A DNA stretch of 13,982 nucleotides, from NCBI GenBank assembly GCA_019058275.1, contig JAHLVW010000008.1, positions 1 through 13,982 of the forward strand. The letters are read 5' to 3'. This document shows, one piece after another, positions 3,512 through 9,856 of the stretch (the stretch's first letter is position 1; each line of letters opens with the position of its first letter). The position numbers and the translations under genes were made by a program. The notes beneath the pieces are model-generated. The model saw only the letters and a program-made list of their open reading frames with translations, had not been told where the DNA came from and searched no databases. Source of the DNA: Candidatus Heimdallarchaeota archaeon (GTDB lineage: Archaea; Asgardarchaeota; Heimdallarchaeia; JABLTI01).

Positions 3512-3590
3512 AATAACTGCTGGTCGCGTGAGAAAGGTGTGGTTGTGAACCACTTTCCGCGAATTCAAATCGCGCTGGACCCACCACTTT
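3512..3590 (+). repeat. tRNA-Ile(CAT)-derived 3' half, copy 1, containing a 33-nt BHB intron (3531-3563) at tRNA position 53/54
   Basis: TGC TGGTC GCGTG [intron] TTCAAAT CGCGC TGGACCC ACCA CTTT. Removing 3531-3563 gives a sequence nearly identical to 8314-8352. No D-arm or 5' acceptor strand lies upstream. Confidence 0.85.
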
Positions 3591-3665
3591 TTATTAATTA
3601 ATTATTTTGTTGATAAAGACTTAAATTCAGAGCTGTACAATTGTTGCATTCGGATGTAATCATTT

Positions 3666-3953
3666 TTGTCTTCCATTGCAAAGAAGAAATTTGTAGAAGT
3701 TGAGCAATTACTCATTCATGGAAATTTCAAAGAAGCAAAAGCAAACACTAAGATTATTTGGTATTATGGACACTGGCCTAAATCATTTTCTTCATTATAT
3801 TTAAGAATACGGGGGAAAAAACTTACTTTGGTAATGTTGGCAAACAGTGATGGATTAAGTCATGGATTTAACTTAGGAAATGGTGATTTTATGACATCAC
3901 CTTTTTTTATAGCATTTTTAGAAATTATAGTTACAAAAAATAAGGTGAGTTAA
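3666..3953 (+). pseudogene. Chimeric remnant: TPR-like N-terminus fused to the C-terminal end of a serine hydrolase (beta-lactamase family)
   Basis: The first ~25 aa (KKKFVEVEQLLIHGNFKEA) look like a TPR helix. The rest (IIWYYGHW...SSLYLRI..KKLTLVMLANSD) matches the terminal strands of class C beta-lactamase-like hydrolases. There is no SxxK motif. Confidence 0.5.
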
Positions 3954-3954
3954 T

Positions 3955-5206
3955 ATGAAAAATACGATTCCTATTGAAAAACGATTGTTTATTTTATCTA
4001 AGAGTTATTCACTAATAAGAGAGTATTTCGCTCATTGGCAGAACGTCAAAGATTTAGATTTTGATAAATGGTATCAAGATATCCTGCAACAAGCAATTGA
4101 AATTGAAGTTCGATATGAGTTTAATTTACTAATGATAGAATTCTTAGCAAAGCTAAATAATGGTCATACATTTTTCTTTGACAATAAATTATGGAGAAAG
4201 AGATTTTATTTAGGATTCAAAATAAAACCAATAGATAAAAATTGGTGTATAGTTCAATCCTCAACTGAAAATTTGAAAGTAGGGTCATTAGTTGAAAAAA
4301 TAAATGGGCAAGATTTCAAAGAGTTTTACATGCAAAAAAGGAAATATCTTAATGCTTCAAATGAACAATCAAGAAAATATACATTATCATCAAGATCTTT
4401 CTTGTTCCCAGAAGTATTTACACTCGAATTACAATCAAGTGAGGAAATAAAAATCAAAGTAAAACCATTAGCCGATAAAAAATCACTTTTTACTGATTTT
4501 GAAACAGAAGGAAAATGGATCAAAAAAGGTGAAATAGCATATATTAAAATACCAAGTTTTAATGAACCAAGATTTGAAGAAAAAGCTGTAGATTACTGTA
4601 AAGATTTTTTGAAAGCGAAAAAAATTATCATTGATGTTAGAGGGAATTCAGGAGGAAGTACTCCCTCAAAACTCCACAAACAATTAATGAACAAACCATA
4701 TCGTTGGTGGACTGAATCAACAAATCTACAAATTGGTTTACTTAATTACTATAATTCTTATTATCAGAAACTCGAAGAAGAGAATCCTGAAGAAGCCACT
4801 AACCCAATCGATCAAGGATGGTATTCAATAACTTCTCTTTTTAAGGATGCCCATTTGTTATGGTCAGGAGAAGAAACAAAACCAATTAAGGATGCCTTAT
4901 CAAGGAGATTTAATTATCCTAGTAGATGCCTATACTCATTCTGCTGCGGAGGATTTCACAATGCCTTTCAAAGACAATGGAAGAGCAATAATTATTGGAG
5001 AAACCACAAAGGGGAGCACAGGCCAACCATATAGTTATAGTTTTTATAATGAATTTATAGTAATGATAGGAACAAAAAGAGCTTACTTTCCAGATGGTTC
5101 ACTTTTTGAAGGAAAGGGTATTGAACCAGATATTCCAATTGAAACAACTGTCGAGGACTACAAAAAAGGGATTGATCCAATTCTACAAAAAGCCCTTAGC
5201 ATTTAG
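3955..5206 (+). pseudogene. S41 family peptidase (tail-specific/tricorn-like), frameshifted near 4897
   Basis: ORF 3955-5034 has 'LNNGHT', a PDZ-like 'LKVGSLVEKING', 'IAYIKIPSF' and 'IIIDVRGNSGGS'. The catalytic half ('LIILVDAYTHSAAEDF', 'IIGETTKGS', 'GKGIEPDI') is in ORF 4847-5206. The sequence AAG GAT GCC T TAT CAA GGA shows one extra T. A sequencing error cannot be excluded. Confidence 0.85.
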
Positions 5207-5271
5207 TTAAGAGAAATTAGAGCATGAAAAAGGGTCTAAATAACGATTGAATCTCAGCTCACTACAATAGT

Positions 5272-5349
5272 GGGCCTATAGCACAGCTTGGTTGAGTACC
5301 AGGCTCATAATCTGATGCCTAGCATGTTCCAATCGCGCTGAGCTCACCA
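5272..5349 (+). tRNA. Degenerate (probably pseudo) tRNA with CAT anticodon, archaeal tRNA-Ile2-like; repeat copy 2
   Basis: GGGCCTA TA GCAC AGCTTGGTT GAGT A CCAGG CT CAT AA TCTGA TGCCTA GCATG TTCCAAT CGCGC TGAGCTC A CCA, with the anticodon at 5306-5308. The GGGCC start and A73 fit archaeal Ile(CAU) better than Met. Each of the four stems has one mismatch. Confidence 0.8.
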
Positions 5350-5459
5350 CTTCTTTCTATTATAATACTATGAACAGTCCTCTATTTCTTAGAATAAAAT
5401 AATACTAATCCTTAACTATAGATCTTGTTTAATGTTAAGAAACTTACTTTTTTTGTTCA

Positions 5460-5906
5460 CTATTGAGAATTATATAATTCATCAATCTTTGTTGCTATTA
5501 CCTCTGCAATTTTCTCTGCAAGTATCAAACCATCTTCATCGAGCTCTTCTTTGGATTCTGGTTTTAATTGTGGATATTTTTTCATAATATCTTGAATATA
5601 AATTGTTGCAGCAGCTGGTGCACTATATTTCTCAACAGCTGTCTTGGCACATGCTTCTTCACAACCTTCTATAGCAATTGTTTTGTGTTTTTTAGCAAAT
5701 TCCCTCTCCTTTCCTCCACCTTTATGTTTTATATCTCCTGCCATAAAGAGTGGTTGGCAAAGGATGGTCGTTATCTTTGGTCGTAATTTTTCTACCACAA
5801 TTCTCGTTGCAACTCTAGTTATTGTTCCTTCTATTAAATTTTCACCACTACAAGCAATTAAACCAATTTTCGGTTTGGTAGTTAAAATTAGTTTATTCTT
5901 CTCCAT
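5460..5906 (-). CDS. DGC-domain putative zinc-binding protein
   Basis: Motifs 'LIACSG', 'ILC', 'IAIEGCEEACAK' (EGC variant of DGCxxxCA); overlaps the stop of the upstream gene. Confidence 0.8.
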   Translation of the reverse strand: MEKNKLILTTKPKIGLIACSGENLIEGTITRVATRIVVEKLRPKITTILCQPLFMAGDIKHKGGGKEREFAKKHKTIAIEGCEEACAKTAVEKYSAPAAATIYIQDIMKKYPQLKPESKEELDEDGLILAEKIAEVIATKIDELYNSQ

Positions 5907-6315
5907 TTAGCAATTCACCTACTTTATCTGCTATTTCTTTTGCAAAAATTTCCATTAATACTTTAGCATTTTCACCTAATGGATAAATATCCGGTTCAGG
6001 TTTCAAATCACGATTTTCCATTACTACTGAAGTTGATAAGAAATGGGCATCTGGTTCATCAATAACTTTAGCCACATCATAATAGGCACACATTGCAGTG
6101 CACCCATCAAGCGTTATTACTTTGTTCTTTTTGAGCTCATCAACTACTTCCTTTTTTCCTTTAACAATTAATGGTAAACATTCAATTGCTGTTTCTCCAG
6201 GTCTAAGGTCATTTACTATTCTATAGGCTGCTTGTCGACAAATGCTTCCATAGACTTTTCCTATTCCACTACAAGGTATAATGTATACTTTTTCACTCAT
6301 TTTTCTTTCATCCAT
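5893..6315 (-). CDS. DGC-domain putative zinc-binding protein
   Basis: Motifs 'IIPCSGIGK', 'ECL', 'ITLDGCTAMCA'. Confidence 0.85.
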   Translation of the reverse strand: MDERKMSEKVYIIPCSGIGKVYGSICRQAAYRIVNDLRPGETAIECLPLIVKGKKEVVDELKKNKVITLDGCTAMCAYYDVAKVIDEPDAHFLSTSVVMENRDLKPEPDIYPLGENAKVLMEIFAKEIADKVGELLNGEE

Positions 6316-8810: not shown

Positions 8811-8822
8811 GCATAAAAATAC

Positions 8823-8871
8823 ACTCCGCGACTTCGAAGGAGCAGTTCGGAACTGGGAGGAGTTCTTTTTT
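8823..8871 (+). terminator. GC-rich branched stem-loop followed by a T-tract
   Basis: ACTCC (8823-27) and GGAGT (8859-63) close two hairpins, CTTCGAAG and CAGTT-CGG-AACTG, followed by TCTTTTTT. It begins 12 nt after the upstream stop. Confidence 0.4.
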
Positions 8872-8952
8872 CATGTTTTTTTTCCAGACTAATGCAAATT
8901 CTATTTAGAAGCACTTCTTTAATCATAATAATCAAAATATTGGGGGATTCTT

Positions 8953-9267
8953 TTGGCGAAAGTAAAAATTACTGTAATTAAGAAGTTCAAATCCAAAGAT
9001 GTTTTTGGAAAAGATTATAAAAATCCGAAAGGAGAAATCATTCCTGAATGTCCTGTTTTTGAAGAAGGACAAGTATTGATTTCAAAAGATGCAGAGAAAC
9101 CAGAAGGTTTCTGTGGCTTTGGTTGGAGAGCAATCCAACCGGAATTAATGGTTCTTAGTTTTGGAGGAAATTTCTGGGAAAGCTGGACTGAACCAGGAAC
9201 TATGTATGTTGCATGTCCAGATGGCATTCGACCTGTTTCTTTTAAGCTTGAAAAAATTGAAGATTAG
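8953..9267 (+). CDS. TIGR04076-like conserved Cys-containing protein
   Basis: 'KVKITVIK', 'CPVFEEGQ', 'PEGFC..GW', 'ACPDGIRPVSFKLEKI'. Confidence 0.85.
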   Translation: MAKVKITVIKKFKSKDVFGKDYKNPKGEIIPECPVFEEGQVLISKDAEKPEGFCGFGWRAIQPELMVLSFGGNFWESWTEPGTMYVACPDGIRPVSFKLEKIED

Positions 9268-9283
9268 TCGATTCTTATGAATT

Positions 9284-9340
9284 AGGTTACATTATCTTTG
9301 CCCTGCGTGTTCCAATCGCGCTGGGCCCACCACTTTCTAT
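9284..9340 (+). repeat. tRNA-Ile(CAT)-derived 3' half, copy 4 (no intron)
   Basis: AGGTTACATTATCTT TGCCCT GCGTG TTCCAAT CGCGC TGGGCCC ACCA CTTTCTAT. The T-arm and acceptor 3' strand are intact; the anticodon arm is eroded. Confidence 0.85.
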
Positions 9341-9555
9341 TTTAACAGCAATTTTCAAATTATTATTGCTTATGTCATATGAAGCATAGCTTTATAAGGC
9401 ATGAATAAACGCTTTCCATTGTATACATATGAAACATTGAGATAGGAATGAAGTAATTTTTGGTTATTAACTTTCGAGTTTGAATTCTCAAAATTTTATC
9501 TTAAAATTTCTTTTCAATATTTTATGTATAACAAAATATTCGGTGAAAAAACAAA

Positions 9556-9714
9556 ATGAGTAGATATAATAACTACAGTAGACCACAACGAGAAATGCAC
9601 GAAGTTACTTGTGCAGACTGCGGTCAAAAAACAGAAGTTCCTTTCAAACCTGATGGTGAACGACCTGTTTACTGTCAAGACTGTTACAGAAAGCGAAAAC
9701 CAAGTAGATATTAG
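9556..9714 (+). CDS. CxxC-x17-CxxC domain protein (52 aa, putative zinc-binding)
   Basis: MSRYNNYSRPQREMHEVTCADCGQKTEVPFKPDGERPVYCQDCYRKRKPSRY*, with exactly 17 residues between the CxxC pairs. GGTGA ribosome site at 9542-9546. Below the ORF track length cutoff. Confidence 0.92.
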   Translation: MSRYNNYSRPQREMHEVTCADCGQKTEVPFKPDGERPVYCQDCYRKRKPSRY

Positions 9715-9815
9715 AATAAAAATATCTATGAATCATTCCTAGTTGAATTATAACTTATTTTATGTTATATTTCATGCTAGTTCTTTTTTTATTACAAGAT
9801 TTAATTTAATCCTAA

Positions 9816-9856
9816 GGTTGCGTGTTCAAATCGCATTAGCCTGCCACTTCCTATTT
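9816..9856 (+). repeat. tRNA-Ile(CAT)-derived 3' half, copy 5 (more degenerate, no intron)
   Basis: GGTT GCGTG TTCAAAT CGCAT TAGCCT GCCA CTTCCTATTT. Confidence 0.7.

Follow-up and report, generated by a model that had tools for sequence, protein, structure and literature searches.

The window analysed here is the whole of contig JAHLVW010000008.1 (13,982 nucleotides, nt; contig C59 in our numbering) in the 4.1-Mb draft genome of a Candidatus Heimdallarchaeota archaeon, hereafter the host genome or G000. It carries five co-oriented copies of the 3' part of a transfer RNA (tRNA) gene, separated by protein-coding cassettes, and the first of these copies holds an intron that the other four lack. 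Comparisons were made within a family sample of 12 draft genomes, G000 and 11 relatives (G001-G011), which are 64-93% complete. The features of the tRNA-bounded part, in window coordinates, are:

3319-3513, + strand: 3' end, now decayed, of the gene of a TPR-protein cassette, immediately 5' of copy 1, aligning with TPR cassette ends in the arrays of G002, G004, G005 and G007
3516-3586, + strand: copy 1, tRNA(CAU) 3' half with intron, through CCA
3531-3563, + strand: 33-nt intron at tRNA position 53/54, of bulge-helix-bulge (BHB) form, a member of a cross-isotype intron family
3955-5206, + strand: cargo, S41 peptidase, frameshifted near 4895 in the present assembly
5212-5271, + strand: DNA that accompanies copy 2 from the source tRNA gene, comprising its leader and putative promoter (a role suggested by its position), with a BRE/TATA-like box at about 5226-5242
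5272-5349, + strand: copy 2, a whole decayed tRNA(CAU) gene (Rfam tRNA, 24.4 bits) without a D-arm, anticodon-loop or T-arm intron
5460-8264: cargo, a DGC/GcvH/ferredoxin operon with an ArsR regulator, located in G003 and G007 beyond the part bounded by tRNA fragments
8314-8349, + strand: copy 3, intron-free 3' half
8526-9267, + strand: cargo, a Zn-ribbon membrane protein and a 104-aa protein
9305-9332, + strand: copy 4, intron-free 3' half
9333-9815, + strand: cassette encoding a 52-aa treble-clef zinc finger; it recurs at different places in the arrays of G003, G004 (at least twice), G007 and G010
9816-9846, + strand: copy 5, decayed intron-free 3' half

Four of the copies matched a 23-mer with up to four mismatches, compared with none in 300 shuffles. 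Contigs from other runs cover copies 1-2 with the intron in place, which supports the assembly of that region, and at 4895 runs X3 and X5 are one base shorter, restoring a single frame length to the S41 peptidase gene. ARAGORN found no tRNA in the window, and it also misses genes with T-arm introns; copies (23-36 nt) were typed by diagnostic bases into the sequence types A and B described below. An earlier reading of this stretch from its sequence alone (the sequence-only reading) had held that the intron is missing from copies 2-5 to the exact nucleotide, and this is borne out: the exon junction is exact, with no base extra or missing, although copies 2 and 5 are decayed nearby. The trailer past CCA that it described as common to all copies is real but short, with CTT following CCA in 22 of 37 type A copies compared with 2 of 39 intact genes of the genome, whereas positions 4-10 are 51% alike against a background T-richness of 44%.

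The insert in copy 1 separates tRNA position 53 from position 54. Its fold (z = -2.68) has BHB geometry, with a 4-bp central helix in which 3525-3528 pairs with 3558-3561, and 3-nt bulges at 3529-3531 and 3562-3564; the inner stem is present and the outer exon helix is weak. Its removal restores a normal tRNA, with a junction identical to that of copies 3-5 and of an intact gene in G003, and related inserts lie in intact Ile, Lys, Ala and CAU genes, as expected of an archaeal BHB intron. Two EndA-domain paralogues with open frames of 195 and 225 aa are predicted splicing endonucleases. Slippage between two CGCG repeats was considered as a source of the intron-free state and rejected by sequence reasoning, as it would leave the end of the intron rather than that of the exon and thus no exact junction.

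Related inserts of 29-33 nt occupy position 53/54 in intact Lys(UUU) genes of G001, G005, G008 and G010, in Ile(GAU) of G000, G004 and G011, in Ala(UGC) of G006 and in the CAU gene of G011, as well as in a type A tail of G010, with more distant ones in Cys, Tyr and Phe genes. The sequence-only reading would have taken the insertion as specific to copy 1 had the tRNA-Ile genes of the host and its relatives all been intron-free; the host itself has 53/54 introns in Ile-GAU (C61), a decayed CAU gene (C78), Cys and Tyr. It had also offered gain of the intron in a single donor lineage, which does not fit a family shared across isotypes, although this single cassette tail may have gained it. The copy 1 intron is 76% identical to the host Ile intron, 73% to that of Lys, 71% to that of the G010 tail and 59% to that of C78. 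With the splice-constrained ends left off, intron interiors were more alike than shuffles for Ile, Lys, Ala and the G010 tail (p ≤ 0.003), whereas those of Cys and C78 were no better than shuffles, a control in which the hairpin is not preserved.

Presence of the 53/54 intron is patchy across the RpoB tree, and it is associated with one T-stem type, found in 10 of 12 intron-bearing but 2 of 64 intron-free class I genes (rows that are not independent); in Leu and Ser genes this T-stem is native and occurs without an intron. Because intron-free orthologues have other T-stems, differing on both strands, T-arm and intron appear to change together. The exceptions are type A in G003 and Ala in G009, which may reflect either exact loss of the intron or uptake of an intron-free Leu-like arm. 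Across the 37 type A copies, found in 7 genomes, a whole intron occurs in two and possible last intron bases in one. A separate family of D-arm introns shows exact toggling across Lys, Ile, Asn and CAU genes (L167, L168, L176, L180 and L181), and ARAGORN misses such genes too.

To judge by sequence, the source of the copies is a non-initiator tRNA(CAU) allele and not tRNA-Ile(GAU): the anticodon CAU is read from copy 2 and from the intact G003 gene, which corrects the tRNA-Ile parentage first assumed. This tRNA may be either Ile2 or elongator Met: TiaS is present, but each genome yielded a single working CAU gene of the non-initiator kind. Contigs C29, C58 (reversed), the window and C46 are linked in series by exact 141-nt overlaps, and C29 terminates in an intact, intron-free tRNA(CAU) gene of type B that heads the array. 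Behind it stand seven co-oriented tRNA tails, two on C58 and five in the window, so that copy 1 is the third fragment and of a sequence type other than that of the head. Six of the seven tails do not share the head's type and match a second allele of the non-initiator tRNA(CAU), type A, all host copies of which are co-oriented within this one joined locus. Similar tail arrays stand behind Val, Ala, Leu, Pro, Lys and Ile genes elsewhere in the host (C19, C33, C48, C53, C61, C107 and C108); the one on C107 is a nearly complete Val gene whose anticodon-loop intron differs from that of the head gene.

The type A gene varies in intron state between genomes. In G003 it is intact and heads an array, with a D-arm intron and without the 53/54 intron, a state shared by one metagenome contig. 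The host orthologue on C78 is decayed and has both D-arm and T-arm (53/54) introns, that of G007 is reduced to a 5' half with an anticodon-loop intron and without the D-arm intron, and the CAU gene at the matching locus of G011, a sister genus, carries the 53/54 intron. As genes or fragments, intron-bearing type A alleles are thus found in G000 (C78), G010 and G011.

Copy 2 bears most directly on how the intron-free copies arose. Upstream of it, 47 of 60 nt are identical to the DNA preceding the C78 gene and 46 of 60 to that preceding the G007 gene, falling to a background of 17-19 of 70 farther out, and this match of ~60 nt reaches past the TATA-like box. Because a transcript from that promoter would not contain the upstream DNA, copy 2 is, as far as sequence can tell, a DNA copy of an intron-free allele. 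This largely refutes, for copy 2, the first option of the sequence-only reading, that spliced but 3'-unprocessed precursor tRNA was reverse-transcribed and inserted. Such retrocopying would account for the exact junctions, for the enrichment of CTT after CCA, for the retention in intron-free copies of a T-stem otherwise tied to the intron, and for G010 fragments that are without the T-loop intron of their head gene. Of the introns that a processed pseudogene would have lost, none is present in copies 2-5, while copy 1, the G010 copy and the Val copy on C107 keep theirs. Nor is copy 2 free of promoter DNA, given the ~60 nt upstream of it, nor are the host copies dispersed, since they stand in tandem at one joined locus; an intact intron-free source gene exists in G003. 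No match to the RVT_1 reverse transcriptase (PF00078) was found in the 12 drafts, other reverse transcriptase families not having been searched. We regard retrocopying as very improbable for copies 2-5. As a whole, the copies probably record intron turnover in DNA form, and may also be a vehicle for it, rather than stemming from reverse-transcribed RNA.

The DNA between the tails behaves as a set of exchangeable cassettes. Units range from 49 to ~6800 nt, are mostly single-gene and recur between species in other orders; a methyltransferase unit is 90-95% identical among G004, G007, G009 and G010, and in a co-occurring strain different DNA replaces 8265-8941. The leftward extent of the tRNA match in a tail tracks the preceding cassette, as in the mostly B-type array of G010, where the zinc-finger cassette still ends in a decayed A-like tail, yet one and the same cassette start can come after an A or a B tail. 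From these two observations we infer, on few pairs, that joining may take place 3' of the intron site, close to the acceptor end that the tails share. Copy 1 itself ends a TPR cassette remnant whose relatives in G002, G004 (a sister species), G005 and G007 have intron-free tails, which indicates that the intron state changed within this cassette lineage. The multi-copy TPR gene was considered as a possible recombinase and rejected, being cargo.

A classical alternative is tandem integration with a crossover 5' of the T-arm, in which copy 1 is the displaced 3' half of an intron-bearing host gene and the rest are intron-free attP sites, reversing the model of Sugahara et al. (2012). The co-oriented 3' fragments behind an intact tRNA gene are consistent with it, the original CAU gene on C78 carries the 53/54 intron, and two other loci suit it: in G010 an intron-bearing fragment lies 110 nt behind the replacement head gene, as a displaced half would, and in G000 the intron-bearing Ile-GAU gene is followed after 4.2 kb by an intron-free fragment of ancestral type. 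Copy 1 differs from these in position and sequence. It stands mid-array after a TPR cassette end common to other species, its exon flanks are unlike those of Ile-GAU and its intron is no more than 59% like that of C78; moreover, most fragments differ from the head gene's type and no unit has an integrase. This option of the sequence-only reading was right in spirit in treating the copies as att-like DNA, but no host gene now present has copy 1 as its displaced half, and we consider the tandem integration model unlikely here. For the idea that tRNA introns hinder integration, a weak comparison detected no shielding effect: a same-type fragment lay within 5 kb behind 1 of 6 intron-bearing and 13 of 101 intron-free genes (P = 0.58), using a crude detector and related, non-independent genes, and the idea is neither supported nor excluded by it.

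Nucleases offer a further route to replacement of tRNA genes. A gene for a 650-aa PD-(D/E)XK/NERD-type nuclease (C29:4748-6700; L256) ends 78 nt before the head tRNA of the host array, and its orthologues in G007 and G010 are placed likewise; paralogues adjoin tRNA-Lys(UUU) and tRNA-Arg(GCG) and also occur in tRNA islands; an Atlas look-up returned weak leads only. Since this gene or its remnant precedes the type B head in G000, G007 and G010, type B seems to be a replacement acquired at a later time, although the join of C78 to C29 is an inexact overlap of 93-95% within a repeat, and the nuclease is a candidate carrier of replacement tRNA genes. One could extend this to homing, whereby a free-standing endonuclease cuts a tRNA gene, repair copies in a cassette with a cut-resistant tRNA part, and the change of intron or T-arm confers the resistance. 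The placement of the nuclease genes and the broken or decayed state of the older CAU gene in G000 and G007 would fit. However, the window cassettes are without this nuclease family, whose activity is only predicted, and the intron-bearing Lys, Ala, Ile and Cys genes have none immediately following them; we therefore think nuclease-driven homing improbable. The ~19 free-standing LAGLIDADG-like genes of the host (~540 aa, median identity 34%, on many contigs, e.g. C29:2998-4428 in L256) are often divergent from a large gene; they have no flanking direct repeats and lie mostly far from tRNAs, which also speaks against homing.

We consider it likely that the five copies arose at the DNA level as att-like duplicates of a tRNA(CAU) 3' part, one of them a whole gene with its promoter, which sample intron-plus and intron-minus alleles, with T-arm and intron forming one module. 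Each cassette would carry, at the downstream end, a tRNA tail of its own and be joined at or near the shared acceptor end by a trans-acting enzyme; because that point lies 3' of the intron site, each copy would retain the intron state of its source allele. Copy 1 would then derive from an intron-plus allele outside the sampled genomes and copies 2-5 from intron-minus alleles. The T-arm with its intron may move between tRNA genes as a single DNA module, by gene conversion or att exchange, making array copies plausible donors for both gain and exact loss. The first exact change of state may have arisen when an intron-free T-arm, the near-identical Leu arm for instance, served as conversion donor, or else through a rare event templated by RNA. 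More tentatively, it is possible that integrase-less arrays of the Heimdall group serve as reservoir and carrier of T-arm modules with and without the intron, driving gain and exact loss across isotypes and species without reverse transcription.

Several observations weigh against this interpretation. No integrase was found among the window's open reading frames, or in or adjacent to any array unit; the search for reverse transcriptases and integrases advised by the sequence-only reading returned, besides the absence of RVT_1, six tyrosine recombinases (PF00589) in G000, all on other contigs and none linked to the array. The crossover position depends on two discordant cassette pairs, and the best intron match, to Ile-GAU, reaches just 76%, so that the sampled sequences include no direct donor or recipient. 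D-arm introns toggle exactly in intact genes, as in Lys of the sister species G001 and G008, which 3' fragments cannot explain; exact intron changes are thus general here and need whole-gene donors like copy 2, paralogue conversion or rare RNA-templated events. Finally, the head tRNA(CAU) of G010 (L075:6014-6153, C21) has an extra T-loop intron at about 58/59 that is absent from four downstream fragments of the same type, a pattern that an RNA route predicts as well as later gain does.

Intron gain from an intron-bearing attP has been proposed for the tRNA-Thr(GGU) locus of Caldiarchaeum subterraneum (Sugahara et al. 2012, PMC3293823), and that model is reviewed together with tandem integration by Badel 2021 (PMC8371274). 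There as here, intron state differs between gene and fragments and mobile DNA carries intron-bearing tRNA parts; in the Caldiarchaeum locus, however, a single 1.8-kb insert combines a 5' fragment with a recombinase gene, whereas in our array 3' tails are numerous, a recombinase is lacking and a single intron family extends over at least four isotypes. Tandem tRNA-targeted elements bounded by attL and attR (pNOB8-type, PMC8371274) likewise have co-oriented tRNA 3' repeats bounding cargo behind an intact tRNA, but here an integrase is lacking in or next to the array and six of seven host tails mismatch the head. The small, shuffled, one-gene units between repeats recall integron cassette arrays, except that the boundaries are tRNA tails, where an integron would have attC sites, and no IntI gene was found beside the array.

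Related introns in different tRNA species are also known from the Thermoproteales, where intron transposition was described (Fujishima et al. 2010, as cited in PMC4033280); relative to that summary, the present intron comes with a T-stem changed on both strands and occurs also in non-functional array copies. A census of Asgard tRNA introns (bioRxiv 10.64898/2026.10.13.758758, October 2026), which inspected only detected tRNA genes, similarly reports that non-canonical introns have turned over repeatedly at sites compatible with a BHB; its tests revealed no general arrival route, and it describes arrival as an open question. Our data add cross-isotype relatives, with identities of 64-76% that fall under its 80% cut-off, and introns on cassette tails. 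No paper describing these arrays or this intron family was found in the literature searched.

The family bears on the question raised by that census, how Asgard tRNA introns arrive and vanish, by offering intermediates: the same intron resides both on cassette tails and in functional genes belonging to several isotypes, sister species show paired intron-plus and intron-minus states, and the T-stem footprint marks past intron presence. Both the att-vector model and the Randau-Soll shield idea become testable, while an RNA intermediate is not shown by this family.

Cargo elsewhere in the arrays includes a 1214-aa WD40-Roc GTPase-TIR-like-nucleoside phosphorylase protein (L022:11220-14864, G007 C89), Schlafen-domain proteins and a probable HicAB pair, all of them defence-like. 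Empty units also occur, with two tails, one per type, 49-50 nt apart at L022:14930-15002 (G007 C89) and in L024 (G005 C20). Within the window, the DGC/GcvH/ferredoxin operon is ArsR-controlled and, downstream of the array copies, a luciferase-like monooxygenase gene (9966-10805) is broken by an in-frame TAG at 10500-10502.

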